A stretch of DNA of 64,000 nt from Escherichia coli (GCF_030013595.1 NZ_CP122768.1), one strand, 5' to 3'; shown: positions 1-44,869, counted from the stretch's first letter. Notes: generated by a model not told the origin, from the letters alone. A program made the numbers and translations.

Positions 1-126
1 CAGCACACCTATTGCTGCCCACTGTGAGGGAGTGACTTTATCGAGCAGCTGTAAAAACCAGTAACCGGCACTACCTGCTGAGGTGCCATAGGCGACTCCA
101 GTTGTTAACTTATCCATGAATTTCAT
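1..126 (-). CDS. Phage holin (lambdoid S/EssD-like), N-terminal part only; ORF runs off window start
   Basis: Reverse-strand translation from ATG at 126: [42 protein letters not shown], holin-like; GAGGTG SD upstream. Confidence 0.6.
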
Positions 127-713
127 AACCCCACCTCGCAGACAAAGCGGGTGTAAATTGAGGGAATACAACGTATCGCAAAAAAGCAGAAACGTAACTG
201 ACTCCGAGTCAGTGAATAACTCAGGTATTGAGTTATCAGCTAATATCGAGACTCAAAAAATGGAAAAACCAGCTCGACGGCGGGTTTAAGCTGTGTGACG
301 AAGTAACCACTCTTAACAGCATAACCAATTTTTTACGTACGTAAACCACTGAATGATATTTATGAGAATGCTACCGAGTGTTCAAAACATCACCACAAAT
401 ACATAAGAAAACCTCAACAAATAACCAATAAATAATTTCCAGTGTTATTTTTAGCCGGTTTAAATTAAACAGACGAATTATAGAACCACCATAAATAACA
501 GCCATTAATATAAATTAGCTAATAGATTTATTTTTGTTCAAATAAGAGCCATAAATAGGTTTCGATAGAAAAAGTTCAGATAAAAATAGAGATCTACTTC
601 ACAAATTAAATGAGAAACTAAAACTTACATCTTGAAATAATCACATTGATTAGATGAATATTTATCGCGCAGTGACATCATTTTTTAATAATAGTTCAAA
701 AAAAGGGCTCACG

Positions 714-1811
714 ATGAAAAAATTAACAGTGGCAATTTCTGCTGTAGCTGCATCAGTACTGATGGCGATGTCTGCTCAGGCAGCTGAAATTTATAATAAA
801 GACAGTAACAAGCTGGATCTGTACGGGAAAGTTAATGCCAAGCACTACTTTTCCTCTAACGATGCAGATGATGGTGATACTACTTATGTTCGTCTGGGCT
901 TCAAAGGCGAAACCCAAATCAACGATCAGCTGACTGGTTTCGGTCAGTGGGAATATGAATTCAAAGGCAACCGCGCTGAATCTCAAGGTTCCTCCAAAGA
1001 CAAAACCCGTCTTGCATTTGCAGGCCTGAAATTCGGTGACTACGGCTCAATCGATTACGGCCGTAACTACGGTGTAGCATACGACATCGGTGCGTGGACT
1101 GACGTTCTGCCAGAATTCGGTGGCGATACCTGGACCCAAACAGATGTGTTCATGACTGGTCGCACCACTGGTGTTGCAACCTATCGTAACAACGACTTCT
1201 TTGGTCTGGTTGATGGTCTGAACTTTGCTGCTCAGTACCAAGGCAAAAACGATCGTAGCGATTTCGATAACTACACCGAAGGTAACGGTGATGGCTTCGG
1301 TTTCTCTGCTACCTATGAATACGAAGGATTCGGTATCGGTGCAACTTATGCGAAATCTGATCGTACCGACACTCAAGTTAATGCAGGGAAAGTTCTTCCT
1401 GAAGTATTTGCTTCCGGTAAAAATGCAGAAGTTTGGGCCGCAGGTCTGAAATATGACGCTAACAACATTTACCTGGCCACTACCTATTCTGAAACCCAGA
1501 ATATGACTGTATTTGCTGATCACTTCGTTGCTAATAAAGCTCAAAACTTCGAAGCTGTTGCACAATATCAGTTCGATTTCGGTCTGCGTCCGTCCGTTGC
1601 TTACCTGCAATCTAAAGGTAAGGATCTTGGAGTATGGGGCGATCAGGACTTAGTCAAATATGTTGATGTAGGTGCAACCTATTACTTCAACAAAAATATG
1701 TCTACTTTCGTTGATTACAAAATCAACCTGCTTGACAAAAATGACTTCACTAAAGCACTCGGTGTAAGCACTGATGACATCGTTGCTGTAGGTCTGGTTT
1801 ACCAGTTCTAA
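714..1811 (+). CDS. nmpC: Outer membrane porin NmpC (OmpD/OmpC family), prophage-encoded, intact 365 aa
   Basis: Signal peptide [23 protein letters not shown], porin motifs, C-terminal ...VGLVYQF; ORF track start at 654 is an upstream in-frame extension. Confidence 0.85.
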
Positions 1812-1948
1812 TCTGATTACGAAAAAGATATGTTGCGGGAGGCGTTGCCTCCCCAACATATAAGTGGCTCCCTCAAGCCACTTCCTTTAGGAGCACAACC
1901 TTGCTTCTAACTATATAAACCTTCTGTTATATATTACCCTTTATTTTT

Positions 1949-1973
1949 GGGGGCGTTGCAACGCCCCATTTTT
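1949..1973 (+). terminator. Rho-independent terminator downstream of nmpC
   Basis: Perfect hairpin ggggcgttgcaacgcccc followed by atttttaat. Confidence 0.55.
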
Positions 1974-2000
1974 AATAACTTTCAGTAAACAATTGGCATA

Positions 2001-2399
2001 TTAATTAGAGTTATTAACAACGATATCCATCTCTAACCGGATATCTAATGCCATTAACATCCCTTCAATTATGCCCTCAGCCTTCTGTAACCTTTTCCCG
2101 ATATAACCATCAGAGCAGCAATGCTTACCTGCCAGTGACATGAATGTCATACCGACTACATAATAATCTACTAATAAATCGTGCAAATCGCTGTTGTTCT
2201 TTTTCAGACGGGCCATGCACCCGCAAATAATCATCGCGTCATCGTCACAACATTGCGGGCGAGATTTTACTTTTGAAGGAATTAATCCCTTAAAACCGGC
2301 GGCAATGGACGACCAGGTCACATCTTCATGATTATTAGCCGCCCACGCTCCCCAACGTTCAAGAACCATCTGAATATCACGCATTAACTTTCTCCACAA
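2001..2399 (-). CDS. quuD: Late-gene antiterminator Q (QuuD-like)
   Basis: 132 aa; sequence matches my recall of DLP12 QuuD; sits directly upstream of the porin/lysis region as in K-12. Confidence 0.75.
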
Positions 2400-2401
2400 A
2401 A

Positions 2402-3397
2402 TCAGGCCAGCACACCAATCGCCAGTGCGCGATCGATAAAACGAAATATCAGCTCCAGCTGGGAGCCATACTTCTCTTCAAATGCCACGGTATCCGCATG
2501 CAGTTCGTCGTGGTGTTTTCTGCACAAAGGCAACACAAAAAGGTCATGCGCTTTTGTACCCATTCCACCCTGACCATGGCCTATCAGATGATGCGGATCA
2601 TCAGCTGGCTTTCCACAACATGCACACGGCTGTGTCTTAACCCAGCGCGTGTACTTTTCATTAACCCAGCGGCGACGTTTTGGGCGTAACATAAAAGACT
2701 CCGGCGACTCCGGATCCACTTTCAGCGCCAGCACCTTTTTCGCCTTATCCTGGATGATGCTGGTGGCAGGAACCGAAGGCACAAGGTCACTTTCCCGGGT
2801 AACAGACGGCACAACAGGCTTCGGTAATCTCAGTGCCTTACGGGCTGCACTTTCCGGTAAGGCATCCGCCAGATCATTACGAATCAGCCACCAGCACAGT
2901 TCCGGCATTGTCACAACGTGACTGTCATCAAAACCGAGATCCCGACGCACAACAGACAACACCCAGCGGGCACAGTTATCCGTTGCCATTGATTCCAGCC
3001 GTTCCGTGAACTGATCGCGCAGCTGGTTATCGCAGTGCCAGCACAGACGGATTGCACCCGGAGCGTGTCGCATTGTGGTCATGTTCTCGCTGTGCCAGTC
3101 GGAATGAGGCCACTGGCAGCCTTTTTCACGAAGTAACCAGCTTTCAAGACATTCCACGCCACCAGCACGACGGATCACTGCCTCATTGCGGAACACGGCC
3201 CGAACGGCAGGATCATCCGCCAGCGGTTGTGATGCCGCCGGAACGGCACCACTGGCGAAAGATGAATAACGCTCCGGCTCAGGCTCCAGCAGGACACGCC
3301 CCTGCATAAACAGGGGCATCAGCTCTGAACCTGGCCTGAACAATACGATCCCCATACGCGGGGCAATTTCAGGGGTCAGTAGTGCTCTCACGGTCAC
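2402..3397 (-). CDS. DUF968 family phage protein (YdfU-like) with C-terminal Cys/His HNH-like motif
   Basis: 331 aa; C-terminus CACCGKP...HHLIGHG...[10 protein letters not shown]; nin-region position. Confidence 0.55.
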
Positions 3398-3398
3398 C

Positions 3399-4241
3399 TC
3401 AATGAACGGTATCGAGCAGCTTTAACAGCTCAGGGAATCGGGATTCGAAGAAATGCGGCTGTGTCTCGCGCGGATTTGCGGGACTGGTGATGTTCTTGCC
3501 GAACATGCAACCTTTCGCTGTCAGCGACCAGAATTTTTTGATGTTGTTAATCGCTGTACGGCTGTATCGTTCGCGCTGCTCGACGATCCCCAGTTTCACC
3601 ATCTGGTGATATGCCTGATTAGCCGTCAGGCGTATACCATACTGTTTCAGCAGTGCACTCAGTGACAGTGTCGGGCGACTTGAGCCATCGTGTGCATCAG
3701 CAGGAGCATCAATGGCATAGCGCGGTGCCAGATTCGGTAAGCCAACAGCCTCCTGGAGTTTCTGACAGGCACCAAGCACTGAAGAGTTAGACAGGTTTAA
3801 CTCCCGGCGCATAAAGTCCAGCAGGATCACGCCAGCCTGCATCTTGTCAGCAGCCTGTCCGGATAATTTTTCCGGTGCGCTGGTTACCATATCGAAAGTA
3901 CGGATCACCTTCAGATGGAATGACGGGCTGATCCACATTGCATAGGCATACACCAGTTCCTTGCAGACATACGTTCCCCGTTCATTTCCCCCATGAATCA
4001 CACTCACCGGGTCAACACCCAAATTCTGGGTGTTGGTCAATTCATGAACAAGCTCAACAGTTTGTTGGCTGGAAAGAAACTTTCCCGGCTCCTTGGTTCT
4101 GGCATTTGCACCAGATGCTACTGCTGCGCGATGCAGATCGTTCAGGCTGTAACGCCCATAAGCATCACGACGAACTTCAATACCATCAATGACCATCAGA
4201 TTATTCATACTTCGTTTCTCCTCTTGATCAGGCGGCTGCAC
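3399..4241 (-). CDS. KilA-N domain protein / putative phage antirepressor
   Basis: 280 aa; N-terminal KilA-N-like segment MVIDGIEVRRDAYGRYSLNDLHRAA; start may be the internal Met at 4208. Confidence 0.5.
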   Translation of the reverse strand: MQPPDQEEKRSMNNLMVIDGIEVRRDAYGRYSLNDLHRAAVASGANARTKEPGKFLSSQQTVELVHELTNTQNLGVDPVSVIHGGNERGTYVCKELVYAYAMWISPSFHLKVIRTFDMVTSAPEKLSGQAADKMQAGVILLDFMRRELNLSNSSVLGACQKLQEAVGLPNLAPRYAIDAPADAHDGSSRPTLSLSALLKQYGIRLTANQAYHQMVKLGIVEQRERYSRTAINNIKKFWSLTAKGCMFGKNITSPANPRETQPHFFESRFPELLKLLDTVH

Positions 4242-4617
4242 CCGCCGTTTTCTCGTACTTACTGATAGTGATCTCGACCTTCCCTTTCGGGATAACCGGT
4301 CCCCACTCCACCAGCATTCTTTTCACCTGACTGTCGTCTTCCCACACACCCGCATGGGTCAGGGCGTCAAACAGCGCCTTGTTATAGTTGTCCAGATCGC
4401 GGATCCGGTTATCCGGAGGAAACAACACGATCTCCACTGAAGCAGGTGCCGACGTTGGTTTCGGCAGACGACGTAACTGCTCAACTATTGCTGCGCACGC
4501 CGCGCTCTGGAATTTGCGCCCCGCTGCGCTTATCAGACTCTTACCAGCAAACGCCCCTTTGTTGGGGTGTCGCCAGTACGTGTTCACGCTGGGCGGGAAA
4601 GGCAAGATCAGCTTCAT
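4228..4617 (-). CDS. rusA: Holliday junction resolvase RusA family
   Basis: 129 aa; ...RDLDNYNKALFDALTHAGVWEDDSQV... matches RusA catalytic-region pattern. Confidence 0.75.
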   Translation of the reverse strand: MKLILPFPPSVNTYWRHPNKGAFAGKSLISAAGRKFQSAACAAIVEQLRRLPKPTSAPASVEIVLFPPDNRIRDLDNYNKALFDALTHAGVWEDDSQVKRMLVEWGPVIPKGKVEITISKYEKTAGAAA

Positions 4618-4940
4618 ACTTTCAGGCCCCTCTCATGTAACCAGTGGGCTGCACGCAGCCTGGCGTTTTCCTCACCGGCAAGCAGTGCGCGGATAATCCC
4701 GACCGCCTCGCTGTCGTCGTCCTTCACCGCGGTATGAAGAGTTATCCCCCGGGCCACGCCACGCTTTATCGTGATGACGCCTTTTTTCTCCAGTGCGCGA
4801 AGATGCTCCACCGCTGCATTCACCGAACGGTATCCCAGCATGGTTGCCACCTCCTGATTGGTTGGCGGAAAGCCACGTTCTTGCTGGTAAGAAATCAGCA
4901 TATCCAGCACCTGCTGCTGGCATTGAGTTAACGTCGTCAT
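4614..4940 (-). CDS. LexA-type N-terminal DNA-binding domain protein, no peptidase domain
   Basis: 108 aa; LTQCQQQVLDMLISYQQERGFPPTNQEVATMLGYRSVNAAVEHLRALEKKGVI resembles the LexA winged-helix domain; 4-nt overlap with flanking genes. Confidence 0.5.
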   Translation of the reverse strand: MTTLTQCQQQVLDMLISYQQERGFPPTNQEVATMLGYRSVNAAVEHLRALEKKGVITIKRGVARGITLHTAVKDDDSEAVGIIRALLAGEENARLRAAHWLHERGLKV

Positions 4941-5590
4941 GCCGCCATCTCCCTGACCAGTTTTTCCGCCTGCTGGCGAACCTGCGCCAGAAAGGCCTCA
5001 CCACATGCCTCAAGTTCATCGCGCCCGATGTAGCTGATTGCCGGTCCCTTCCAGGTCTTGTCGAAAACAGCAATAGCACCAGCGAAGAAAGCGCCTGTCG
5101 GCACCTGCTTCTCGTCCTTCGGGATAAACCAGGCTGGCAGTTCAAAACCAATACGCCCGCGAATAAAAGCAATATGGTCTGCATCTTCCGGCCACCACAC
5201 TTCGCTGGTGGCAGCTTTGATCAGGAAAACATAGCGCCCGCCTTTATCACGCATGGCACTGGCATGCTTCATGATGTAACGCATGCCGGTGATGTATTGC
5301 CCCTCATGCTGACTGGCGCGGCTGTACGGGGGATTACCAAAGGCAGCACCTTTAAGCTCCGCAAGACGTTCTGACCAGTCATGCGCCAGCGCGTTGTCTT
5401 CCGCAGTGTAATACGCGGCGCATTTGGCGTTATCACCATCAGTAAACAGATCCAGAACAAACGGGCCAAACAGGGTGTTAATTCCCCAGAAAATGTTGTC
5501 CGGCGTGCGCCACTGATCGCCCACTTCCTTCAGTTCATGGGCTGGTTTGTTCCGCAGCTCCACCAGCGCCTGGCAATATTTATTACTCAT
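4937..5590 (-). CDS. Phage DNA N6-adenine methyltransferase (Dam-like)
   Basis: NPPY motif (GNPPYSR); start placed at Met giving TAATG coupling with the upstream gene; ORF track extends to 5623. Confidence 0.7.
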   Translation of the reverse strand: MSNKYCQALVELRNKPAHELKEVGDQWRTPDNIFWGINTLFGPFVLDLFTDGDNAKCAAYYTAEDNALAHDWSERLAELKGAAFGNPPYSRASQHEGQYITGMRYIMKHASAMRDKGGRYVFLIKAATSEVWWPEDADHIAFIRGRIGFELPAWFIPKDEKQVPTGAFFAGAIAVFDKTWKGPAISYIGRDELEACGEAFLAQVRQQAEKLVREMAA

Positions 5591-6084
5591 TAAGCCCCCA
5601 CGTAATTCCCTGACAGATACCACTCTTCACCCGATGCAGCGCGCTTGCTGCTTTTCCGTAAACACCGCTCACGACGCGCAAGAAAATTGTTTCGCTCTTG
5701 CTGGGAGTGGCTTTCACGGAATGCCGCCATCCACACCGTTGCAGCACGACGGTATAAGCCCCTGGACTCCAGTTCTTCCGCCTGGCGGGTCAGGCACAAA
5801 ATAACCCGGGGATCGTTAGTGCCGACATAGAAATTGCGCACAGGTCTGGATTCACGAACTGGTTGCGGTTCCGGCTCCTGCGGTATCTCAGTCAGCCGCG
5901 GGAAATGTCTGCGTGTATCCCCTTCACAACGGTGAGCCACACGCCCACTCTGACGTAACTTGCTTGCTGACTGCAGAACGCGCTGTCGTGAGTAACCTGC
6001 AAAAGCATCCGCAATGTCTCCGGAAGTACACCCCGGATGGGCTTCAATGAATTTCTGAACGTCATTCAAAAGACTCATGATCAC
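5590..6084 (-). CDS. Hypothetical phage protein in replication module
   Basis: 164 aa, translationally coupled to the replication gene upstream and the methyltransferase downstream. Confidence 0.45.
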   Translation of the reverse strand: MIMSLLNDVQKFIEAHPGCTSGDIADAFAGYSRQRVLQSASKLRQSGRVAHRCEGDTRRHFPRLTEIPQEPEPQPVRESRPVRNFYVGTNDPRVILCLTRQAEELESRGLYRRAATVWMAAFRESHSQQERNNFLARRERCLRKSSKRAASGEEWYLSGNYVGA

Positions 6085-7022
6085 CCCCTGAATCCTGCCG
6101 GGATCTGGCTGTAGTCCACGTTGTCGTAACTGGCTTTGAAGTACGGGTCTTCGCGTTTTTCGGTGTACGTGCTGACGGACGGCGATAAGCGCAGGGAAAG
6201 CTCATCCCATTTTTCCCGCAGCTTCGACGGGCTGAGCACGTTACGGCACCAGAACGGATCGCGACTGACGCGGCTGTACATCTCGCAGATTTGTTTATGA
6301 GTACGACCATCCTGCACACACATCAGGCGAATTTCGTTTGCCCAGGCTGTCCAGTTCGGTTCTTTGGGACGAACCACCTCGCCGTCACATTCGGCGGCAT
6401 GCTCGTACAGGGCGATGATTTTTTTCCAGAGCCACTGTGCGCAGGTCAAATCATCCTGCGTCCCCCACTGGCGCTTTTTAGGGCTGAATACAACCGCATC
6501 AGGATGGCGAGTTAAAAAATCCTGTTCAGCCGTCTGCGTGTCCGGTTGCGAAGAGTCCGGACGAGAAGGTTTTTTATCTGACGGATCATGTTTTGATTTT
6601 ACTGACGGATCCCCGCCAGATTCTGACGGGTGAAAACCCGCTTTTTTGCCAGATTTCGACGCATCAAATTTTGACGGGTCAGATTTTGATGCGTCAGATT
6701 TTGACGGGTCAGAATCTGACAGTTGAGAAAATGCCGCTGCCTGAAGCTTCGCAACGTTAAGCTGATAAACATTCGACGCATTGCGGTTACCCTGGCGACG
6801 CGCCTTACGCGTTAACCAGCCTTCTGCTTCCAGCCGTGCGATAGCCGTTCTGACGGTACTCATCCCCGCGCCAATCTGGCGGGCAATGGTTTCAATCGAT
6901 GGCCAGCACACACCTTCGTCATTACTGAAATCAGCCAGGCGGGCCATAATTGCCACGCTGGATAATTTCATGCCTGACGCTGCGCAACCATCCCATACAT
7001 AGCCGGTTAATTTAGTGCTCAT
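6081..7022 (-). CDS. Putative phage replication initiation protein (N-terminal wHTH, O-like role)
   Basis: 313 aa; HTH segment CWPSIETIARQIGAGMSTVRTAIARLEAEGWL; repetitive SDPSKSDASK linker encoded by internal iterons. Confidence 0.55.
   Translation of the reverse strand: MSTKLTGYVWDGCAASGMKLSSVAIMARLADFSNDEGVCWPSIETIARQIGAGMSTVRTAIARLEAEGWLTRKARRQGNRNASNVYQLNVAKLQAAAFSQLSDSDPSKSDASKSDPSKFDASKSGKKAGFHPSESGGDPSVKSKHDPSDKKPSRPDSSQPDTQTAEQDFLTRHPDAVVFSPKKRQWGTQDDLTCAQWLWKKIIALYEHAAECDGEVVRPKEPNWTAWANEIRLMCVQDGRTHKQICEMYSRVSRDPFWCRNVLSPSKLREKWDELSLRLSPSVSTYTEKREDPYFKASYDNVDYSQIPAGFRG
6575..6730. repeat. Iteron array (putative prophage ori) inside the replication gene
   Basis: About 8 tandem copies of a TGACGG(A/G)TC-like unit (tctgacggatc, actgacggatc, tctgacgggtg, ttgacgggtc x2, ttgatgcgtc) followed by an A/T-rich stretch. 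Confidence 0.55.
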
Positions 7023-7031
7023 GACCGACCT

Positions 7032-7370
7032 CTATTTCCCTGAATTTACGACGAAACTGTTCGAGCGGACTGAAGCACTCATGCTCATAGCCTTCGCGGA
7101 GGTAGATAACCCGTTGTGTTTCCGGTTCCCAACGAATGACTCTGACGGGCACTCCGTAGTGATCTTTGAACCAGCGGTTAACTTGTCGCAAAGGACTGTC
7201 TCCTTCTGCCGGTTGAAATCCCCCACAGCCCACTCTGCAAAGCTGTGGGTTACAATTTCCCTGTCACCTGGTACATTCACTGCATAGCAATATTCCACCT
7301 TCGCTTTTCCACCCGGTACAGGAAGCGCAATCAGTTGCGAGCGACGGTAGTGTGTTGTTAAACTGTTCAT
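7032..7370 (-). CDS. YmfM-like e14-type phage protein
   Basis: 112 aa; 4-nt overlap with the upstream CII-like gene; C-terminal half overlaps an alternative-frame ORF (7012..7233). Confidence 0.45.
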
Positions 7371-7936
7371 GCGTTAGTTTCTCCACAACCAGAAGCAATC
7401 GACGCCACGACGCCCGGAGCTGCACACTCGCGGGCGTCATTACTTTCTGAAATGCAAAAGATTTTGTAGACCAGTGCTGCATGCTCCTGCAGCTTCGAAA
7501 TTGAGAGATACAGCTCGTCGTTAATTGCTGTCTTCTCATGCGGTTCCACTACACCGTCTTCGATTGCTGAACGAATCTGTTTTGAATAACTGCCGATCTG
7601 TTCAATGACTTCCAGCAGACGCTGGTTAATATCGGCGTTGTCCACATCCTCGACGTCAGGAAGCGACACAAAGACGCCATTTGCAGACTGCGCCACAGCA
7701 TCAGCAATGAAGTGAGTGCCACCAGCACGCTGTAAAACCATTGCCCATCCCAGCGGGAAAATCTGATCGCCATCTGCACGAAGGCGGTTGAATAAAGCGT
7801 TTTCTGTTACATCGAGCCAGTCAGCCGCTTCAGCGTAACCACCCGGCAACGCCGCGATAGTTTTTCTGACAGCTTTCACGTACCACTCAGGCTGTTTTTC
7901 TATTTTCCAGTGATGCTTACCCACGATTAGCCTCAT
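7367..7936 (-). CDS. YmfL-like / CII-type phage regulatory protein
   Basis: 189 aa, directly downstream of cro in the rightward operon. Confidence 0.55.
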
Positions 7937-7967
7937 CGTTCTGTGGTTAAAAATTGAAAGTGTTCTG

Positions 7968-8168
7968 CTAATCTTTCGGATAGATATCCGGTCTTAAGTC
8001 AGATTTCGTAATTGCACCTGACGTGCATTGCTCAAGTTTTTTAGCCAGCACAAAACTGGCTTTTTTATAGCCATTGAAAACCAGCCGTAAGTAGCCAGGA
8101 GTTGAGCCAACTTTTCCGGCCAACTCGCCCTGCTGTTCTTTGGTTAAAGAGTCCCAATACGCTTTCAT
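7968..8168 (-). CDS. Cro-like repressor
   Basis: 66 aa MKAYWDSLTKEQQGELAGKVGSTPGYLRLVFNGYKKASF... with HTH; GGAG SD; divergent from cI; ORF track's 167 aa is an upstream extension. Confidence 0.65.
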   Translation of the reverse strand: MKAYWDSLTKEQQGELAGKVGSTPGYLRLVFNGYKKASFVLAKKLEQCTSGAITKSDLRPDIYPKD

Positions 8169-8222
8169 ACAATATGTACCTCCGGTGTACATATTACATG
8201 ATTGAAATGAACCTTCAAGACA

Positions 8223-8243
8223 CTTGTACCTTAACGGTACAAG
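8223..8243. promoter_or_regulatory. Putative OR operator palindrome between cro and cI
   Basis: cttgtacc-ttaa-cggtacaag inverted repeat; further TGTAC half-sites at 8175 and 8186. Confidence 0.45.
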
Positions 8244-8258
8244 GGTTTTAATTTCGTT

Positions 8259-8933
8259 ATGAAAACAATCCATGACATCCGGCGGTCTAACGCCCGAAAA
8301 CTGAGAGATGGTGTTGGAGGGAATTCTTCCTTTGCCACTATGATTGATCGCGAGCCAACCCAGACCAGCAGGTTTATGGGAGATGGTGCTACTAAAAATA
8401 TCGGTGACAGCATGGCACGACACATCGAAAAATGTTTCGACCTGCCTGTCGGATGGCTCGATCAAGAACACCAGACAACGAACATCACAAAAAAACCTGA
8501 TGTTTCAATCACTAATAAACAAATCACATTAGTCCCTGTCATATCATGGGTACAGGCCGGAGCATGGAAAGAAGTTGGATATTCTGAGGTTGATTTGAGC
8601 ACAGCAGAAACGTATCCCTGCCCTGTACCCTGTGGGGAAATGACTTATATCTTGCGGGTGATAGGTGATTCAATGATTGATGAGTACCGCCCGGGAGACA
8701 TGATTTTTGTCGATCCTGAAGTACCTGCCTGCCACGGTGACGACGTTATTGCATTGATGCACGATACAGGTGAAACCACCTTCAAAAGGTTGATAGAAGA
8801 TGGGACACAGCGTTATCTCAAAGCGTTAAACCCAAACTGGCCTGAGCCTTACATTAAGATCAACGGTAATTGCTCTATAATTGGAACTGTGATTTTCTCA
8901 GGAAAACCAAGAAGATACAAAATCAAAGCCTAA
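8259..8933 (+). CDS. CI-like prophage repressor (HTH plus S24 LexA-like peptidase), CohE-like
   Basis: 224 aa; C-terminal S24 region ...VIGDSMIDEYRPGDMIFVDPEV...; divergent from cro. Confidence 0.8.
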   Translation: MKTIHDIRRSNARKLRDGVGGNSSFATMIDREPTQTSRFMGDGATKNIGDSMARHIEKCFDLPVGWLDQEHQTTNITKKPDVSITNKQITLVPVISWVQAGAWKEVGYSEVDLSTAETYPCPVPCGEMTYILRVIGDSMIDEYRPGDMIFVDPEVPACHGDDVIALMHDTGETTFKRLIEDGTQRYLKALNPNWPEPYIKINGNCSIIGTVIFSGKPRRYKIKA

Positions 8934-8946
8934 TCAATGTTTATGA

Positions 8947-8968
8947 ACCTGCTTCGGCAGGTTTTTTT
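8947..8968 (+). terminator. Rho-independent terminator after the cI-like gene
   Basis: acctgc-ttcg-gcaggt hairpin followed by tttttt. Confidence 0.6.
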
Positions 8969-8972
8969 ATAC

Positions 8973-9000
8973 TTGACAATGTACCCACGAGATACATAAT
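8973..9000 (+). promoter_or_regulatory. Putative pL-like sigma70 promoter with operator repeats
   Basis: TTGACA (8973-8978), 16-bp spacer, CATAAT (8995-9000); direct repeats atgtacccacgaga / atgtacccaagaga share the TGTACC operator half-site. Confidence 0.45.
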
Positions 9001-9081
9001 GTACCCAAGAGAAACAACAAACAGGCAGGACGCCCACGAAGTAGCCGCCTGGGGCATATGAAGTCCAGGATGATTCGTTAG

Positions 9082-9110
9082 CAACAAAAAAGCGCCCTAC
9101 AGGACGCTTA
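9082..9110 (-). terminator. Rho-independent terminator for the minus-strand moron
   Basis: On the minus strand: agcgtcc-tgta-gggcgct hairpin followed by tttttgttg, 38 nt past the stop at 9148. Confidence 0.45.
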
Positions 9111-9147
9111 GCTCTTTAACAATCTGGATATCCACAACAGTAGTAAT

Positions 9148-9639
9148 CTACAGATTGCCGTTAAGTTTTCTGGACAACTCCTCAATGGATGGAGGCGATA
9201 CGTAATCCGGATTTTTATTCATCAGAAACTTATTTTCACAGTGGAGGCACCTGCTTTTATGAAAAAGCTCATCTTCGCTAACCGGGAATGGTTGAAGTAT
9301 CGATACTATCTTTTGTCCAAAACATTTTGGGCAAAGATGCATGGTTATGCTGCCACCGTTCACGATTACCTCCTTCGAGTATACAAAAGTACCCGACTCA
9401 AGTTGGTTAAGGATATAGCCTTCCGTCTGAGCCTCAAAGTTTTCGAATTCTGCAATTTTAGCTTTGAGAGAAGCATTTATTTCTTGATAAGAGCCCACCA
9501 GTTCAACGAGAGACACGCATTCGCGCTGAATAGACGCAAGCTTTGAGTTCAGCTCACCAATAGCCGCATTTACTTCAGCTTGAGTTTTTGCCTCGTTCAT
9601 TAGTTTTGCAATCTGGGCTGTTTCACGAATAGCCGTCAT
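9148..9639 (-). CDS. Hypothetical coiled-coil / C4 zinc-ribbon protein (moron between cI and early-left operon)
   Basis: 163 aa from Met at 9639; N-terminal coiled-coil-like region, C-terminal CPKC...(26)...CLHC; opposite to pL transcription; AT-rich; ORF track extends implausibly to 9927. Confidence 0.5.
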   Translation of the reverse strand: MTAIRETAQIAKLMNEAKTQAEVNAAIGELNSKLASIQRECVSLVELVGSYQEINASLKAKIAEFENFEAQTEGYILNQLESGTFVYSKEVIVNGGSITMHLCPKCFGQKIVSILQPFPVSEDELFHKSRCLHCENKFLMNKNPDYVSPPSIEELSRKLNGNL

Positions 9640-9949
9640 TGCTGCCGTTAATTCAGCGATCACATTGAATACTCTTATTGTTGTTGGGGATATCCAGATT
9701 AACCGAATCCTTGTTGTTGGGGAATAACCAGGTCCACCTCGCCTGATGTGGCTAAAAGCAGGCACATAACAGCTAAGTATTTTCAACCAGAGAGAATCCT
9801 TAGCGTTGTGGTGAATGCGGCTCAGCGCACGCGGGTTAAGGTTGAGGCTGACAGTCGACCTTCTGTGGATACCCACCCGCCTGGTGTGCAACCTTCGCCA
9901 GGCACCGGGAGGCACCCGGCACCACAACTTTATGCTGTGTGTAGTCCTG

Positions 9950-9996
9950 GCGGTACCAGTTTGTACCCTTGCTTCCGGCTGGTACCGTCCTTTTTT
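9950..9996 (+). terminator. Rho-independent terminator in GC-rich non-coding region
   Basis: cggtaccag ... ctggtaccg 9-bp stem followed by tcctttttt. Confidence 0.5.
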
Positions 9997-9997
9997 G

Positions 9998-10084
9998 CAA
10001 AACAGAGAAGAGCATCACCGGACGACGGGCTCATAACCCAATCCATCCGGGCGGCTGCCACCGCAGGTGTTCTTCTCTGTTTTG
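9998..10084. repeat. Long imperfect inverted repeat / RNA stem
   Basis: caaaacagagaagagca and tgttcttctctgttttg (17 bp, one mismatch) flanking ~53 bp of GC-rich sequence. Confidence 0.4.
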
Positions 10085-10133
10085 TGGAGAAACCAACCGA
10101 CCTTGCAGGGTCGATATGATGAGGAGCAGCAAA

Positions 10134-10496
10134 ATGGCTAGCGAACGCAGTACTGATGTGCAGGCATTTATCGGGGAGCTGGACGGCGGCGTATTTGAAA
10201 CCAAAATCGGCGCAGTTCTCAGTGAGGTCGCTTCCGGTGTGATGAACACGAAAACCAAAGGGAAGGTCTCACTCAATCTGGAAATCGAACCGTTTGATGA
10301 GAACCGTGTGAAAATCAAACACAAACTCTCATATGTTCGCCCAACTAACCGCGGGAAAATTTCCGAAGAAGACACCACCGAAACGCCGATGTATGTCAAT
10401 CGCGGTGGTCGCCTGACTATTCTGCAGGAAGACCAGGGACAATTACTGACTCTTGCCGGTGAACCTGACGGAAAACTCCGCGCAGCAGGTCGTTAA
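10134..10496 (+). CDS. YfdP-like prophage protein
   Basis: 120 aa; GAGGAG SD 7 nt upstream of ATG; first gene of the early-left operon, gene order as in CPS-53 yfdPQRST. Confidence 0.6.
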   Translation: MASERSTDVQAFIGELDGGVFETKIGAVLSEVASGVMNTKTKGKVSLNLEIEPFDENRVKIKHKLSYVRPTNRGKISEEDTTETPMYVNRGGRLTILQEDQGQLLTLAGEPDGKLRAAGR

Positions 10497-10561
10497 TATC
10501 GTTCGTAATAAACTGATTATTTATCTCATCACTGAATATCTTTATATAGTGAGGACTTATT

Positions 10562-11386
10562 ATGTCTCAGAACTTAGACGCAACCGCAATTAATCAAATC
10601 CATGCCCTTATTTCTGCTCAGAGTGTTAATGAAATTATCAGTAAGATTGGTGCCGATGCTGTGGCATTGCCTGAGAATTTCCGCATTCATGATCTGGAAA
10701 AATTTAATTTAAATCGCTTCCGTTTCCGTGGTGCACTTTCCACTGCCAGCATCGATGATTTTACCCGTTATTCTAAAGATCTTGCAGATGAAGGCACCCG
10801 CTGCTTTATCGATGCCGATAATATGCGTGCCGTCAGTGTGCTTAACCTGGGTACTATTGATGAGCCAGGTCACGCAGATAACACTGCCACTCTCAAACTG
10901 AAAAAGACAGCACCGTTCTCTGCTCTGTTGTCTGTTAACGGCGAGCGTAACTCCCAGAAGTCACTGGCAGAATGGATCGAAGACTGGGCCGACTACCTTG
11001 TGGGCTTTGATGCTAATGGTGACGCCATTCAAGCAACAAAAGCGGCTGCGGCAGTCCGTAAAATCACGATTGAAGCAAACCATACCGCTGATTTTGAAGA
11101 TAATGACTTCAGCGGCAAACGCTCCCTGATGGAGTCTGTCGAAGCGAAGACCAAAGACATTATGCCAGTGGCATTTGAATTTAAATGCGTTCCGTTTGAA
11201 GGTCTGAAAGAACGTCCGTTTAAATTACGCCTCAGCATTATCACTGGCGATCGTCCTGTACTGGTTCTGCGCATTATTCAGCTGGAAGCGGTGCAGGAAG
11301 AAATGGCTAACGAATTTCGTGATCTGCTTGTTGAGAAATTCAAAGACAGCAAAGTAGAAACCTTTATTGGTACTTTCACCGCCTGA
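10562..11386 (+). CDS. yfdQ: YfdQ family protein (DUF2303)
   Basis: 274 aa, same length and position as CPS-53 YfdQ; TGAGGA SD. Confidence 0.7.
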
Positions 11387-11397
11387 TTTCATTACTG

Positions 11398-11420
11398 CAA
11401 ATGCCCCTGCGGGGGCATTT
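11398..11420 (+). terminator. Stable stem-loop between yfdQ and yfdR (possible attenuator)
   Basis: aatgcccc-tgcg-ggggcatt perfect 8-bp stem; weak T tract. Confidence 0.35.
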
Positions 11421-11513
11421 ATGGAAACGTAATTAACTCAATAATCACCGGATGGTGAGGGCTTCCTTTTACCAGAATTCAGCGCGGTGCAGTGCATATA
11501 CGTGGAGAACAAA

Positions 11514-12050
11514 ATGTCATTTATTAAAACTTTTTCCGGGAAGCATTTTTATTATGACAAGATAAATAAAGACGACATCGATATTAACGATATCGCGGTT
11601 TCCCTTTCAAATATCTGTCGCTTTGCCGGTCATCTTTCGCACTTCTACAGCGTCGCCCAACATGCGGTTCTTTGCAGCCAGCTGGTGCCGCAGGAATTTG
11701 CTTTTGAAGCGTTAATGCATGATGCAACAGAAGCGTATTGCCAGGACATTCCCGCACCACTGAAACGCCTTCTTCCTGACTATAAACGGATGGAAGAAAA
11801 AATAGACGCCGTAATCCGTGAGAAATACGGGTTACCCCCAGTTATGAGTACACCCGTGAAATATGCCGATCTCATCATGCTGGCAACCGAACGCCGCGAT
11901 CTCGGGCTTGATGATGGCTCTTTCTGGCCTGTACTGGAAGGCATCCCGGCAACAGAGATGTTCAACGTGATTCCACTGGCACCGGGTCATGCCTACGGGA
12001 TGTTTATGGAACGTTTTAACGATTTATCGGAGTTACGCAAATGCGCATGA
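11514..12050 (+). CDS. yfdR: HD-domain 5'-deoxynucleotidase YfdR-like
   Basis: 178 aa from MSFIKTF; HD-family residues (...QHAVLCSQ..., ...HDATEAY...); ORF track start at 11487 is an upstream extension. Confidence 0.7.
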   Translation: MSFIKTFSGKHFYYDKINKDDIDINDIAVSLSNICRFAGHLSHFYSVAQHAVLCSQLVPQEFAFEALMHDATEAYCQDIPAPLKRLLPDYKRMEEKIDAVIREKYGLPPVMSTPVKYADLIMLATERRDLGLDDGSFWPVLEGIPATEMFNVIPLAPGHAYGMFMERFNDLSELRKCA

Positions 12051-12403
12051 ATGTTTTCGAAATGGAAGGGTTTCTTCGCGGGAAATGTGTACCGCGAGAT
12101 CTGAAAGTGAACGAAACAAATGCTGAGTACCTGTTACGTAAATTCGACGCGCTTGAAGCTAAATGTGCGGCACTGGAAAACAAAATAATACCAGTGTCAG
12201 CTGAACTGCCACCAGCAAATGAAAGTGTTCTGTTATTTGATGCTAACGGAGAAGGCTGGCTGATTGGCTGGCGTTCTCTCTGGTACACCTGGGGACAAAA
12301 AGAAACCGGAGAATGGCAGTGGACATTTCAGGTCGGGGACCTTGAAAACGTCAATATCACTCACTGGGCAGTAATGCCAAAAGCACCGGAGGCTGGAGCA
12401 TAA
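12041..12403 (+). CDS. yfdS: YfdS-like prophage protein (DUF551)
   Basis: 120 aa, follows yfdR as in CPS-53. Confidence 0.65.
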   Translation: MRMNVFEMEGFLRGKCVPRDLKVNETNAEYLLRKFDALEAKCAALENKIIPVSAELPPANESVLLFDANGEGWLIGWRSLWYTWGQKETGEWQWTFQVGDLENVNITHWAVMPKAPEAGA

Positions 12404-12708
12404 TGACCACATTTACCAATAAAGAACTGATTAAAGAAATCAAAGAACGAATCAGCAGCCTAGAGGTTCGAGACGATATTGAGCGCCGTGCTTATGAAAT
12501 CGCACTCGTATCTCTGGAAGTAGAGCCAGATGAACGCGAAGCCTATGAATTATTCATGGAAAAGCGTTTCGGTGACTTAGTAGATCGTCGGAGAGTAAAA
12601 AACGGCGATAACGAATACATGGCATGGGATATGACTCTCGGTTGGATCGTCTGGCAGCAACGAGCTGGTATCCATTTTTCAACAATGACACAGCAAGAGG
12701 TGAAATAA
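12403..12708 (+). CDS. yfdT: YfdT-like prophage protein
   Basis: 101 aa, coupled to yfdS (ATGA-type overlap). Confidence 0.65.
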   Translation: MTTFTNKELIKEIKERISSLEVRDDIERRAYEIALVSLEVEPDEREAYELFMEKRFGDLVDRRRVKNGDNEYMAWDMTLGWIVWQQRAGIHFSTMTQQEVK

Positions 12709-13079
12709 TGGAGCCATACAGCCTCACACTCGATGAGGCCTGTCAGTTTCTTAAGATATCCAGACCAACCGCCACCAACTGGATACGAACAGGCCGCCTA
12801 CAGGCAACACGTAAAGATCCAACCAAGCCAAAATCTCCTTACCTCACAACACGGCAAGCTTGCATTGCGGCGCTTCAGTCTCCGCTGCATACTGTCCAGG
12901 TGAGCGCGGGTGATGGCATAACAGAGGAAAGAAAATGTCACTCTTCCGCAGAAATGAAATATGGTATGCCTCGTATTCGCTCCCGGGCGGGAAACGAATT
13001 AAGGAATCTCTTGGCACAAAGGACAAGCGGCAAGCTCAGGAGTTGCACGACAAGCGAAAAGCAGAACTCTGGCGAGTAG
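12708..13079 (+). CDS. Putative excisionase (AlpA/Xis-like HTH); 3' end uncertain, frame overlaps int
   Basis: Starts TAATG-coupled to yfdT; N-terminal HTH-like segment [28 protein letters not shown]; frame stays open to 13079. Confidence 0.45.
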
Positions 13080-14098
13080 AAAAGCTAGGGGATTTACCTG
13101 ATGTCACTTTTGAAGAGGCCTGCCTAAGATGGCTTGAGGAAAAAGCTGATAAAAAATCTCTCGATTCAGATAAAAGCCGGATTGAGTTCTGGCTTGAACA
13201 TTTTGAGGGTATAAGGCTTAAAGATATCTCGGAGGCAAAGATTTACTCTGCTGTAAGCAGAATGCATAACAGAAAGACGAAAGAAATATGGAAACAGAAA
13301 GTTCAGGCCGCCATCAGGAAAGGTAAAGAACCGCCTGTTTATGAACCAAAGCCAGTATCAACTCAGACAAAGGCAAAGCATCTTGCCATGATAAAGGCCA
13401 TTCTCCGTGCTGCAGAACGCGACTGGAAGTGGCTGGAAAAAGCGCCTGTCATCAAGATACCAGCGGTCAGAAACAAGCGAGTCAGATGGCTGGAAAAGGA
13501 GGAAGCAAAACGCCTTATTGATGAGTGCCCCGAACCACTGAAATCTGTCGTCAAGTTTGCGCTGGCAACTGGTCTGAGAAAGTCGAACATCATAAATCTG
13601 GAATGGCAACAAATCGACATGCAGCGACGAGTTGCCTGGGTGAATCCAGAAGAGAGCAAATCAAACCGCGCCATTGGTGTGGCGCTGAACGATACCGCCT
13701 GTAAAGTGTTGCGTGATCAAATAGGCAAGCATCACAAATGGGTGTTTGTACATACCAAGGCGGCTAAGCGAGCAGATGGAACATCAACGCCTGCGGTCAG
13801 GAAGATGCGCATCGACAGCAAGACATCATGGCTATCAGCTTGTCGTCGTGCAGGAATTGAAGATTTCCGTTTCCATGACCTCAGACACACCTGGGCAAGC
13901 TGGCTGATCCAGTCAGGCGTCCCATTATCTGTGCTTCAGGAAATGGGCGGATGGGAGTCCATAGAAATGGTTCGTAGGTATGCTCACCTTGCGCCTAATC
14001 ATTTGACAGAGCATGCAAGGAAAATAGACGACATTTTTGGTGATAATGTCCCAAATATGTCCCACTGTGGAATTATGGAGGATATAAAGAAGGCGTAA
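12935..14098 (+). CDS. intD: Tyrosine integrase (IntD-like), adjacent to argU
   Basis: 387 aa; C-terminal catalytic region ...[17 protein letters not shown]...VRRYAHL; ends 16 bp from the tRNA 3' end. Confidence 0.85.
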
Positions 14099-14113
14099 CT
14101 GATTGAATTGTAA

Positions 14114-14190
14114 TGGCGCGCCCTGCAGGATTCGAACCTGCGGCCCACGACTTAGAAGGTCGTTGCTCTATCCAACTGAGCTAAGGGCGC
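14114..14190 (-). tRNA. argU: tRNA-Arg (anticodon UCU), argU
   Basis: Reverse complement GCGCCCTTAGCTCAGTTGGATAGAGCAACGACCTTCTAAGTCGTGGGCCGCAGGTTCGAATCCTGCAGGGCGCGCCA, 77 nt, cloverleaf-compatible. Confidence 0.95.
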
Positions 14191-32497: not shown

Positions 32498-33547
32498 ATG
32501 AAAATCAGTCGGGAAACACTCCACCAGCTAATCGAGAATAAACTCTGCCAGGCTGGGTTAAAACGTGAGCACGCTGCAACCGTGGCTGAAGTATTGGTTT
32601 ACGCCGATGCCAGAGGGATCCACTCTCATGGCGCGGTGCGCGTGGAATACTACGCGGAACGCATTTCAAAAGGCGGCACCAACCGCGAACCGGAGTTTCG
32701 TCTTGAGGAAACCGGGCCGTGTTCGGCAATTTTACATGCCGACAATGCTGCCGGACAGGTCGCGGCGAAAATGGGTATGGAACATGCCATCAAAACCGCC
32801 CAGCAAAAAGGCGTTGCGGTGGTCGGTATCAGCCGGATGGGTCACAGCGGCGCAATCTCTTATTTTGTACAGCAGGCAGCTCGCGCCGGGTTAATTGGCA
32901 TTTCGATGTGCCAGTCCGATCCAATGGTGGTGCCGTTTGGCGGCGCGGAAATTTACTACGGTACTAACCCACTGGCCTTTGCCGCGCCGGGAGAAGGCGA
33001 CGAGATCCTTACCTTTGATATGGCGACTACCGTACAGGCATGGGGAAAAGTGCTCGACGCCCGCTCGCGTAATATGTCTATCCCGGATACCTGGGCGGTC
33101 GATAAAAACGGTGCACCAACAACCGATCCATTTGCAGTTAACGCCCTGCTCCCTGCCGCCGGACCGAAAGGGTATGGCCTGATGATGATGATTGACGTCC
33201 TCTCAGGCGTCTTACTCGGCTTACCGTTCGGGCGACAGGTTAGTTCGATGTATGACGATTTACACGCCGGGCGTAATTTGGGGCAATTACATATCGTTAT
33301 TAACCCGAACTTTTTCTCCTCCAGCGAACTATTCCGTCAACATCTTAGCCAGACCATGCGCGAATTAAATGCCATAACCCCCGCGCCCGGTTTTAACCAG
33401 GTTTATTATCCCGGACAGGATCAGGATATTAAACAACGCAAAGCCGCCGTCGAAGGCATCGAAATTGTTGATGATATTTACCAGTATTTAATTTCTGACG
33501 CGCTTTATAACACGTCATACGAAACGAAAAATCCCTTTGCGCAATAA
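32498..33547 (+). CDS. allD: Ureidoglycolate dehydrogenase AllD
   Basis: 349 aa Ldh_2 family. Confidence 0.9.
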   Translation: MKISRETLHQLIENKLCQAGLKREHAATVAEVLVYADARGIHSHGAVRVEYYAERISKGGTNREPEFRLEETGPCSAILHADNAAGQVAAKMGMEHAIKTAQQKGVAVVGISRMGHSGAISYFVQQAARAGLIGISMCQSDPMVVPFGGAEIYYGTNPLAFAAPGEGDEILTFDMATTVQAWGKVLDARSRNMSIPDTWAVDKNGAPTTDPFAVNALLPAAGPKGYGLMMMIDVLSGVLLGLPFGRQVSSMYDDLHAGRNLGQLHIVINPNFFSSSELFRQHLSQTMRELNAITPAPGFNQVYYPGQDQDIKQRKAAVEGIEIVDDIYQYLISDALYNTSYETKNPFAQ

Positions 33548-33568
33548 TTATTGAGACAGGACTTTCTT

Positions 33569-34804
33569 ATGATTACACATTTCCGTCAAGCCATAGAAGA
33601 AACGCTGCCCTGGCTTTCCTCTTTTGGCGCTGACCCAACGGGTGGGATGACCCGTTTACTTTATTCGCCGGAATGGCTGGAAACTCAGCAGCAATTTAAA
33701 AAAAGAATGGCAGCAAGCGGGCTGGAAACACGTTTCGATGAAGTGGGGAATTTATATGGTCGCCTGAGTGGCACCGAATATCCACAAGAAGTGGTTCTGA
33801 GCGGTTCGCATATCGATACCGTGGTTAACGGCGGTAACCTCGACGGGCAATTCGGCGCGCTGGCGGCGTGGCTGGCAATTGACTGGCTGAAAACGCAATA
33901 CGGCGCGCCGTTACGTACGGTCGAAGTGGTGGCGATGGCAGAAGAAGAAGGCAGCCGCTTCCCGTATGTCTTCTGGGGCAGTAAAAATATCTTTGGGCTG
34001 GCGAATCCTGACGACGTGCGGAATATCTGTGATGCCAAAGGAAATAGTTTTGTCGATGCGATGAAGGCTTGCGGATTTACTCTGCCGAACGCCCCACTAA
34101 CTCCGCGTCAGGATATTAAAGCCTTTGTTGAACTGCATATTGAACAGGGCTGTGTGCTGGAAAGCAATGGGCAGTCAATTGGCGTGGTGAATGCAATTGT
34201 CGGGCAGCGTCGTTATACGGTGACGCTGAACGGCGAATCAAACCATGCAGGCACCACGCCGATGGGTTATCGTCGTGATACGGTTTACGCTTTCAGTCGC
34301 ATTTGCCATCAGTCTGTCGAAAAAGCGAAAAAGATGGGCGATCCGCTGGTTCTGACCTTTGGCAAAGTAGAGCCGCGCCCGAATACGGTGAATGTGGTGC
34401 CGGGTAAAACCACGTTCACCATTGATTGTCGCCATACCGATGCTGCCGTGCTGCGCGATTTCACCCAACAGTTAGAAAACGACATGCGGGCGATTTGCGA
34501 TGAAATGGACATTGGTATTGATATCGATTTATGGATGGACGAAGAACCCGTGCCGATGAACAAGGAACTGGTCGCCACCCTGACAGAATTGTGTGAACGC
34601 GAAAAACTGAATTACCGGGTGATGCACAGTGGTGCCGGGCACGACGCACAAATTTTCGCGCCGCGCGTGCCGACCTGCATGATTTTTATCCCCAGCATCA
34701 ACGGGATCAGCCATAACCCGGCAGAACGCACCAATATTACCGACCTTGCCGAAGGGGTCAAAACGTTGGCACTCATGCTTTATCAACTTGCCTGGCAGAA
34801 ATAA
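33569..34804 (+). CDS. allC: Allantoate amidohydrolase AllC
   Basis: 411 aa from MITHFRQAIEE; M20 peptidase family. Confidence 0.9.
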   Translation: MITHFRQAIEETLPWLSSFGADPTGGMTRLLYSPEWLETQQQFKKRMAASGLETRFDEVGNLYGRLSGTEYPQEVVLSGSHIDTVVNGGNLDGQFGALAAWLAIDWLKTQYGAPLRTVEVVAMAEEEGSRFPYVFWGSKNIFGLANPDDVRNICDAKGNSFVDAMKACGFTLPNAPLTPRQDIKAFVELHIEQGCVLESNGQSIGVVNAIVGQRRYTVTLNGESNHAGTTPMGYRRDTVYAFSRICHQSVEKAKKMGDPLVLTFGKVEPRPNTVNVVPGKTTFTIDCRHTDAAVLRDFTQQLENDMRAICDEMDIGIDIDLWMDEEPVPMNKELVATLTELCEREKLNYRVMHSGAGHDAQIFAPRVPTCMIFIPSINGISHNPAERTNITDLAEGVKTLALMLYQLAWQK

Positions 34805-34814
34805 GGAGTTATAA

Positions 34815-35600: not shown

Positions 35601-35642
35601 GTCATACCACTCGCCTGATTATTTTTAGCTATGTTGGATTTT

Positions 35643-35669
35643 GCCACGGTTTATACCGTGGCTTTTTTT
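35643..35669 (+). terminator. Rho-independent terminator after allE
   Basis: gccacggt-ttat-accgtggc followed by ttttttt. Confidence 0.6.
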
Positions 35670-35684
35670 GCGGTAAATTCAGGT

Positions 35685-35714
35685 AAAAAACGGATGCGGG
35701 ATAAAATGCATCCG
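35685..35714 (-). terminator. Rho-independent terminator after glxK
   Basis: cggatgc...gcatccg hairpin with U-run on the minus strand. Confidence 0.5.
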
Positions 35715-35729
35715 CTCTAATGGCAAGAG

Positions 35730-36875: not shown

Positions 36876-36896
36876 TATCAATCCTTTTTCAACAAA

Positions 36897-38204: not shown

Positions 38205-38254
38205 ACCTTAACCGGAGAATGCCCGCCACAAGGACGGGCATTGCAGGGGCCAGA

Positions 38255-39616: not shown

Positions 39617-39675
39617 AACAAACTCCTTGTAAAATACAGATTGGTTTTTAACTCAATGTTCAATATCGTGATTAA

Positions 39676-43055: not shown

Positions 43056-43067
43056 TATTTATCTCCC

Positions 43068-44849: not shown

Positions 44850-44869
44850 TTTATTCCTACCTCTATTAA

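Follow-up and report, generated by a model that had tools for sequence, protein, structure and literature searches.

A porin locus known as nmpC/lc has been described in Escherichia coli and its phages since the 1980s, and the increase of NmpC together with the decrease of OmpC and OmpF is the classical 'protein 2' conversion phenotype of phage PA-2. In PA-2 the porin gene lc is reportedly followed by the ipeX sequence, which in K-12 is said to lie between the stop codon of nmpC and its terminator, and OmpC is reportedly lowered in PA-2 lysogens. E. coli K-12 harbors nmpC in the defective prophage DLP12, where the gene carries an IS5B element after codon 346. The K-12 promoter PnmpC was mapped by 5'RACE and deletion analysis as an active sigma-70 promoter within the region -210 to -1 of the ATG, with a G as transcription start; it is activated by CRP and repressed by OmpR, IHF and MprA, it drives the only detectable ins5A mRNA in K-12, and IS5 transposition is lower once it is deleted or blocked (PMC11677980). 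IpeX is a 167-nt RNA encoded by DLP12 that is made from the porin promoter within the porin transcript and represses OmpC and OmpF (PMC12197685, PMC5069750), and the repression of OmpC has been ascribed to the 3' part of the porin transcript (PMC12197685). It was further described that the nmpC mRNA is a target of RybB in E. coli, and that OmpD is a major porin of Salmonella, where it is not treated as a prophage gene (PMC3333887). Thus nmpC/lc, its disruption by IS5 in K-12, its promoter, its regulation by an sRNA and IpeX are all published, and the locus is already known.

The copy analyzed here lies at the beginning of a 64,000-nucleotide stretch of E. coli DNA (GCF_030013595.1, NZ_CP122768.1), referred to below as the window. 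On the + strand an open reading frame is unbroken from 654 to 1811, corresponding to 385 aa if counted from the first ATG. The original prediction had placed the feature at 654-2000; a porin gene is indeed present there, but its functional start is at 714 and not at 654. Translation most likely begins at ATG 714, which is preceded at a distance of 6 nt by a Shine-Dalgarno motif readable in the sequence (AAGGG, 703-707, + strand) and is used as the start by RefSeq in strains printed as 100.0% identical to this stretch. Most phage records also use 714, while in the annotation of three of them (ev207, 2G7b and ev017) the CDS is extended to the upstream ATG. We rejected initiation at ATG 654 with its 385-aa product, as a Shine-Dalgarno motif is missing there and neither RefSeq nor the majority of phage records place the start at this codon; since ATG 654 moreover coincides in part with the probable -10 hexamer and precedes the probable site of transcription initiation, the additional 20 codons are probably not translated.

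From ATG 714 the CDS runs to 1811 (+ strand; 365 aa plus stop), and its product is a full-length OmpC-type general porin, in agreement with the predicted 365-aa member of the OmpC/OmpD family. Pfam Porin_1 (PF00267) covers residues 29-365 over profile positions 1-337 of 337 (E=1.8e-156; 521.2 bits against a cut-off of 23.7), and the NCBIfam 'porin OmpC' subfamily model scores 527.8 bits against a curated cut-off of 484. In alignments with the mature chains of OmpC, Omp36 and OmpK36 from the PDB, the match begins at query residue 24 (E about 1e-136), which sets the signal-peptide cleavage between AQA and AEIYNK. The gene thus begins with a normal Sec signal peptide of 23 aa (714-782, + strand), as had been expected, and the n, h and c regions of this peptide are visible in the sequence. 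Residues 131-140 hold the loop-3 constriction motif PEFGGD, and the protein ends in VYQF, whose terminal Phe represents the aromatic barrel assembly signal. The PEFGGD motif, the C-terminal YQF and the mature N-terminus AE(I/V)YNKD are shared with the OmpC, OmpK36 and Omp36 structures. In contrast to these proteins, the porin of the window is phage-borne, and it deviates in length and sequence in the gapped parts of the alignment at residues ~180-190, 220-235 and 305-310, which probably correspond to the surface loops L4, L5 and L7. From the similarity of about 1e-136 to solved OmpC-type structures we infer a trimeric 16-stranded barrel with pore activity; a PDB search returned no solved structure of NmpC or Lc itself. 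As to the relationship with Salmonella OmpD, phage records annotate genes of the window type as OmpD, and a putative link is given by these annotation names together with the statement in PMC3333887. Two antisense reading frames within the porin gene (1047-1610 and 1650-1859, - strand), for which there was no supporting evidence, were taken as shadow ORFs of a codon-biased gene.

The closest described relative is the K-12 gene. The IS element named by the original prediction is annotated as IS5B in the MG1655 pseudogene, and its removal restores a 365-aa reading frame that is identical to the window porin at 362 of 365 residues (1069 of 1098 nt of the CDS, 97.4%). From K-12 to the window the substitutions are A59V, Q149G and A151T; G149 and T151 are found in 10/10 other copies compared, as in the window, and V59 in 3/10. 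Unlike K-12, the window copy carries no IS5B, and the CTAA target, located after codon 346 from the K-12 annotation and flanks and from a note in the phage 434B record, is intact (1750-1753, + strand). The neighbors quuD and essD, their orientation and the tRNA-Arg/intD site are all as in DLP12, from which the window differs by a 16-bp indel in the holin-proximal spacer. A frameshift or other disruption of the window copy was looked for, and translation from 714 and comparison with other copies revealed zero frameshifts, internal stops or insertions. A decaying copy, with an overlooked frameshift, a premature stop or a lost start, might have been suspected from the IS5 in nmpC of K-12 and its derivatives, and from two phage records (PhiR68_2 and ev243) in which the gene is annotated as two ORFs. 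These split annotations were rejected as frameshifts, as both copies give 360 aa without stops from the homologous ATG. With 365 aa read from 714 without a stop, colinearity with all other copies and a full-length HMM match, this explanation is refuted and retains a negligible probability.

Upstream of the gene, a hexamer scan places the probable core promoter PnmpC at 632-669 (+ strand), with a -35 element TTGAAA (632-637), a spacer of 18 nt, a -10 element GAATAT (656-661) and a probable start at G667 or G669. The 93 bp in front of the ATG (621-713), comprising core promoter and 5'UTR, are the same as K-12 PnmpC base for base and near-invariant in 10 other copies. A CRP-like site, AGAGATCTACTTCACA, was picked up by pattern search at 588-603 (+ strand) with its center ~72 bp upstream of the probable start; it has 2 mismatches and, not being significant alone, is regarded as a candidate. 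A scan for consensus promoters called none upstream of the porin gene, and the region is AT-rich (GC 0.28-0.29 at 301-750).

Downstream of the stop codon the porin mRNA would continue into a structured 3'UTR (1812-1975, + strand) that ends in a predicted intrinsic terminator, so that a terminator of its own, as originally proposed, is indeed assigned to the gene. According to terminator scan and fold this element (1950-1975, + strand) consists of GGGGCGTTGCAACGCCCC followed by ATTTTT, with a 7-bp GC stem and a T5 run. The segment between quuD and nmpC is identical to its K-12 DLP12 counterpart at 184/189 positions (97%). The distance from the stop codon to the T-run is ~162-167 nt and agrees with the 167 nt of IpeX. 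The 3'UTR folds into five hairpins (-63 kcal/mol, z=-7.66 versus shuffled controls) and is 93-100% conserved in 10 other copies, while the coding sequence is 85-88% conserved across allele classes. Taking K-12 identity, fold and conservation together with the IpeX literature, the 3'UTR is most likely IpeX. The stretch 1812-1975, which we take to be ipeX from its identity with K-12 and from secondary literature, would thus follow the porin gene in the same arrangement as reportedly found in PA-2. In Rfam, neither gathering thresholds nor a limit of E<=1 yielded a family for the 3'UTR, the sole match being a chance snoRNA inside the coding sequence. Among the 11 copies compared, no covariation supporting the five hairpins was detected; most changes are in loops or one-sided and two shorten a stem, which is uninformative because the 11 3'UTR copies are too similar.

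The porin gene is embedded in a prophage. It lies, as predicted, between quuD and the holin gene on the opposite strand, giving the order quuD (-), porin (+), essD (-), in which the porin is opposite in strand to the late operon. The Q-type late antiterminator gene quuD (2001-2384, - strand; 127 aa) was identified by Pfam Phage_antitermQ (E=8.5e-54) and is 99.2% identical in nucleotide sequence to K-12 quuD; at the E-values obtained, chance is no concern for either the porin or the Q family match. Only the 5' part of essD is present (1-126, - strand), since the gene runs off the window; sequence, RefSeq and phage annotations assign it to a class II holin of the phage 21 type with dual starts at 126 and 117 (MKFMDK...). 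The prophage adjoins intD and tRNA-Arg(tct) (14114-14190), the same attachment site as that of DLP12. Window positions 1-14138 are 99.7% identical to positions 1-14138 of the isolated phage PhiR29_1 (record host ECOR13), and in contrast to the defective DLP12 this prophage has retained its entire early region and is a close match to a viable phage. From this we conclude that the porin is cargo of a still viable phage type and not a mere relic. That a chromosomal gene of the ompC/ompD type merely happens to lie beside phage remnants could be read from the NCBIfam OmpC subfamily assignment and from the many database copies named 'porin OmpC'. This reading is refuted by the near identity of the whole 1-14138 segment, porin included, to PhiR29_1, by the presence of the Q-porin-holin block in 36 phage records and by the prophage end at intD and tRNA-Arg, and virtually no weight is left to it. 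In composition the porin CDS (GC 0.44, optimal-codon fraction 0.76) is set apart from the early genes beyond quuD (GC 0.51-0.57, 0.53-0.60), while quuD has a GC of 0.43 and an optimal-codon fraction of 0.47.

In phage ev087 the slot just downstream of a related Q is occupied by a different cargo, the lipocalin Blc, likewise in antisense orientation and with a strong - strand terminator between Q and cargo. The Q gene of ev087 is 87% identical in DNA, the homology between ev087 and the window breaks off within the 3'-terminal part of Q, and the cargo protein is unrelated. The slot between Q and the lysis genes thus holds replaceable cargo, as is characteristic of a moron. No phage with this Q and gap that lacks the porin was found; phages without the porin share homology only as far as the 3'-terminal part of Q (window 2025 or 2052).

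The 189-bp gap between Q and nmpC appears to carry a late promoter and a terminator on the - strand in addition to the 3'UTR on the + strand. Scanning and alignment with ev087 suggest a candidate pR' at 1910-1961 (- strand), composed of TTGCAA and TAATAT with a spacing of 19 (1961-1931), followed by a -10-like TATAGT (1915-1910). The 9-mer ATATAACAG at 1933-1925 (- strand) is also present in ev087, where it occupies a comparable position downstream of the related Q. In the candidate pR' region the consensus promoter scan called no - strand promoter. QuuD matches the Q21 structures weakly (E=7.6e-8 over 80 aa), and due to this distance the known Q binding site from the phage 21 late promoter is not transferable. 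A candidate tR' (1821-1861, - strand) is predicted by the - strand fold as a 15-bp bulged GC-rich hairpin followed by CTTTTTC. The ev087 layout supports, but does not prove, such a pR'-tR' unit in the window. If it is real, polymerase modified by Q has to transcribe through the complete porin unit in antisense before it arrives at essD, in line with the title of the original prediction. The candidate tR' is placed directly ahead of the entry of the late transcript, in antisense, into the porin gene.

To compare alleles, 11 copies were aligned. The window, K-12, PhiR29_1, Turner and PhiR26_1 belong to the 365-aa class, and the 360-aa alleles comprise at least two subtypes (ev099, PhiR68_2 and ev243 on the one hand, ev207, 2G7b and ev017 on the other). 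The dN/dS ratio is 0.05 against K-12, with 24.5 of 29 substitutions synonymous, and 0.08-0.10 against the 360-aa alleles. The fraction of optimal codons (0.76) and the share of rare codons (1.1%) in the porin gene differ from those of neighboring prophage genes (0.47-0.60 and 4-11%). Codon usage and dN/dS point to a maintained, highly expressed gene. Throughout the 11 copies residues 1-180 are almost invariant, and the differences fall into patches that match the gapped stretches of the OmpC structure alignment and probably represent the surface loops L4-L8. Synonymous divergence amounts to ~0.15-0.2 in codons 1-180 and to 1-2.3 thereafter, a jump that indicates recombination within the gene, as is commonplace among porins exposed at the surface.

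Taken together, these data suggest an uninterrupted representative of the classical nmpC/lc lysogenic-conversion module, carried by a lambdoid prophage, with the following mechanism, a reading to which we give a probability of about 0.85. In the lysogen, host RNA polymerase would start at PnmpC, read nmpC and the structured 3'UTR of ~165 nt and end at the terminator at 1950-1975. NmpC would be exported, lose its signal peptide after AQA and form trimeric pores, and the 3'UTR RNA, IpeX, would reduce the synthesis of OmpC and OmpF, whereby the phage porin would partly replace the major porins of the host. This exchange would alter permeability and take away OmpC and OmpF as receptors for other phages and colicins. 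Upon induction, Q-modified polymerase would start at the late promoter in the 189-bp gap, pass the terminator at 1861-1821 and cross the porin unit in antisense to the lysis genes. As PnmpC and the ipeX-like 3'UTR are contiguous in the window, while IS5 separates them in K-12, a replacement of porins (NmpC up, OmpC and OmpF down) is likely rather than the addition of one extra pore. Given that the 3'UTR is most likely IpeX, receptor availability is expected to change largely through the down-regulation of OmpC and OmpF.

Indirect support for expression of the porin in the lysogen, which the original prediction considered possible, comes from the identity of the promoter to that of K-12, from codon usage and dN/dS, and from the occurrence of the protein in other strains: NmpC was identified in outer-membrane preparations of AIEC (PMC9409007), and in UPEC CFT073 at 37 °C two nmpC copies were up and ompC was down at RNA and protein level (PMC12890032). 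In this strain the prophage thus probably supplies a working general porin and an RNA lowering OmpC and OmpF, and the two can alter surface antigenicity, the permeability for antibiotics and nutrients, and the susceptibility to phages and colicins that depend on OmpC or OmpF.

A different outcome would be that the gene is intact but silent, either silenced by H-NS or 'quiescent', traveling with the Q-S region and contributing nothing to the lysogen under ordinary conditions. The low GC content of the upstream region is of the type silenced by H-NS, the predicted -10 hexamer GAATAT is weak and the consensus scan called no promoter there, repression by OmpR, IHF and MprA has been reported (PMC11677980), and a title cited in PMC3333887 calls the porin gene nmpC of E. 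coli B quiescent. Against this, the core promoter is identical to the one that drives the only detectable ins5A mRNA in K-12 (PMC11677980), NmpC protein has been seen in wild strains (PMC9409007, PMC12890032), and dN/dS values of 0.05-0.10 along with a strong codon bias argue for frequent expression at a high level. We therefore regard a silent gene as unlikely. An equally unlikely explanation is that the RNA is the main selected payload, in which case the shutdown of OmpC and OmpF by IpeX would exclude superinfecting phages and colicins while the porin compensates for the lost pores. It would account for the better conservation of the 3'UTR (93-100%) than of the CDS (85-88%) across allele classes, for a fold far better than that of shuffled sequences (z=-7.66) and for the decrease of ompC when nmpC is up in CFT073. 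It would also fit the ascription of OmpC repression to the 3' part of the transcript, noted above and reportedly made in earlier work as well. However, the same 189 bp also have to accommodate the late promoter and terminator of the other strand, a constraint that could by itself explain their conservation, and strong purifying selection acts on the porin protein too, which has diversified only in probable surface loops. A payload of this kind complements the nmpC/lc conversion module with its porin and its RNA more than it competes with it.

The predicted short transcript from pR' to tR' is likened to the 6S RNA of phage lambda. The IpeX 3'UTR and this late leader would be perfectly complementary over ~100 nt, and a two-strand device is conceivable in which the late RNA pairs with, processes or titrates IpeX, and Q-antiterminated antisense transcription across nmpC after induction turns off the porin conversion. 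We consider this speculative device improbable, more so than either a silent gene or a main RNA payload; if true, it would make lysogenic conversion dependent on whether the phage is in the lytic or the lysogenic state.

Both E. coli genomes and sequenced temperate phages commonly contain the gene without interruption, so that this copy adds nothing new for the field. At least 80% of the 2.4-kb holin-porin-Q block, which is ~96% identical to DLP12, is carried by 2396 of 5426 complete E. coli genomes. When a 200-bp probe centered on the K-12 IS5 site was used, it was covered to at least 80% in 1922 of the 5426 genomes, and at least ~640 of these, with more than 90% identity, have this allele uninterrupted at the IS5 site. 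The remaining probe-positive genomes appear to contain the related 360-aa alleles under the PGAP name 'ompC'. At least 1000 contigs encode exactly this protein, labeled as porin, outer membrane porin protein LC, putative NmpC or porin OmpC; the second of these names links it to Lc (protein 2) of PA-2. With regard to annotation, such copies should be named nmpC/lc with ipeX instead of 'ompC' or 'hypothetical protein'. At least 14 E. coli chromosomes match the 2.4-kb block at 100.0% as printed, and a direct comparison with one of them showed a 1-base indel. E. coli 2012EL-2448 is printed as 100.0% identical over window positions 1-2400 and 99.2% identical over 22 kb, and has a different allantoin region.

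The porin gene of the window (714-1811, + strand) and its copies in phages fall into a 365-aa and a 360-aa size class, and the 360-aa class can be divided into two subtypes or more. The flanks of both classes are nearly identical, and the amino-acid differences between the encoded proteins are grouped in probable surface loops. Beyond codon 180 of the porin gene, synonymous divergence rises about ten-fold. This jump indicates that recombination has taken place within the gene.

Codons 149-151 (window 1158-1166) encode QRA in NmpC of K-12 and GRT in the window as well as in all nine other copies. Since only K-12 has QRA among the copies compared and the site is located directly past the PEFGGD loop-3 motif, it is the reference K-12 protein that deviates in the pore-lining region. 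A further difference was found immediately 5' of the Shine-Dalgarno sequence, where an A-tract (window 698-704) consists of seven residues in the window, in K-12 and in three phages carrying the 360-aa allele (ev207, 2G7b and ev017). Strain 2012EL-2448 and six of the phage copies have eight residues at this position. The tract, which lies near the ribosome-binding region, is possibly a slippage-prone site. Between the window and 2012EL-2448 the porin block is 100.0% identical as printed, with one 1-base indel.

In phage ev087 (LR597644, 1802-2326; for comparison, window 1812-2060) the slot that the porin gene takes in the window is filled by a gene for the lipocalin Blc, likewise in antisense orientation. 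The Q gene of phage ev087 shares 87% nucleotide identity with that of the window, a late-strand terminator sits between Q and the Blc cargo, and the 9-mer ATATAACAG is common to the phage and the window (1933-1925). Antisense cargo genes appear to have landed repeatedly in the gap between Q and the lysis genes. The K-12 DLP12 segment comprising Q, nmpC::IS5 and the lysis genes is contained in phage 434B (OL657227), a sequenced laboratory phage, and is annotated in that record as a 434 non-homology region with a crossover in ylcG. Phage 434B is an example of a phage that acquired the late region of the defective prophage.

On the late-operon strand (-), long open reading frames of 187 aa (window 1047-1610) and 69 aa (window 1650-1859) lie within or overlap the porin gene. 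For the shorter one, the phage 434B record gives the product name 'hypothetical protein' and a ribosome-binding site; the two frames probably represent shadow ORFs of a gene with biased codon usage. The holin gene essD (window 1-126, -) carries the dual-start motif MKFMDK of the phage 21 type, with starts at 126 and 117, implying that it encodes a holin/antiholin pair; RefSeq annotates the shorter form only. In the late direction, Q is preceded by the early-right genes (window 2402-6084, -), which encode a DUF968/HNH-like protein (2402-3397), a KilA-N protein (3399-4241), RusA, a short, N-terminal-like LexA-family protein (4614-4940), a Dam-type methyltransferase and a PerC-family regulator (5590-6084).

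For window 33283-49447 (16 kb, from the allantoin/glyoxylate region to ybbP), no counterpart was found in the corresponding segment of 2012EL-2448, where IS1 is flanked by truncated ybbP and allD genes. In spite of its matching porin block, 2012EL-2448 is therefore not the strain from which the window comes. An Rfam match to AgrB (window 48695-48783, -; 53.6 bits, gathering score 40) adjoins the RefSeq-annotated type I toxin gene dinQ, flanked by mnmH and ybbP, and seems to mark a toxin-antisense locus of the dinQ/agrB type. Within the 1.8-kb query covering this locus, some parts are highly repeated, with a median of 25 places in each genome. In the allantoin region, with allE and glxK on either side, the Rfam sRNA family STnc480 was matched at window 35607-35673 (-; 84.9 bits, gathering score 72).
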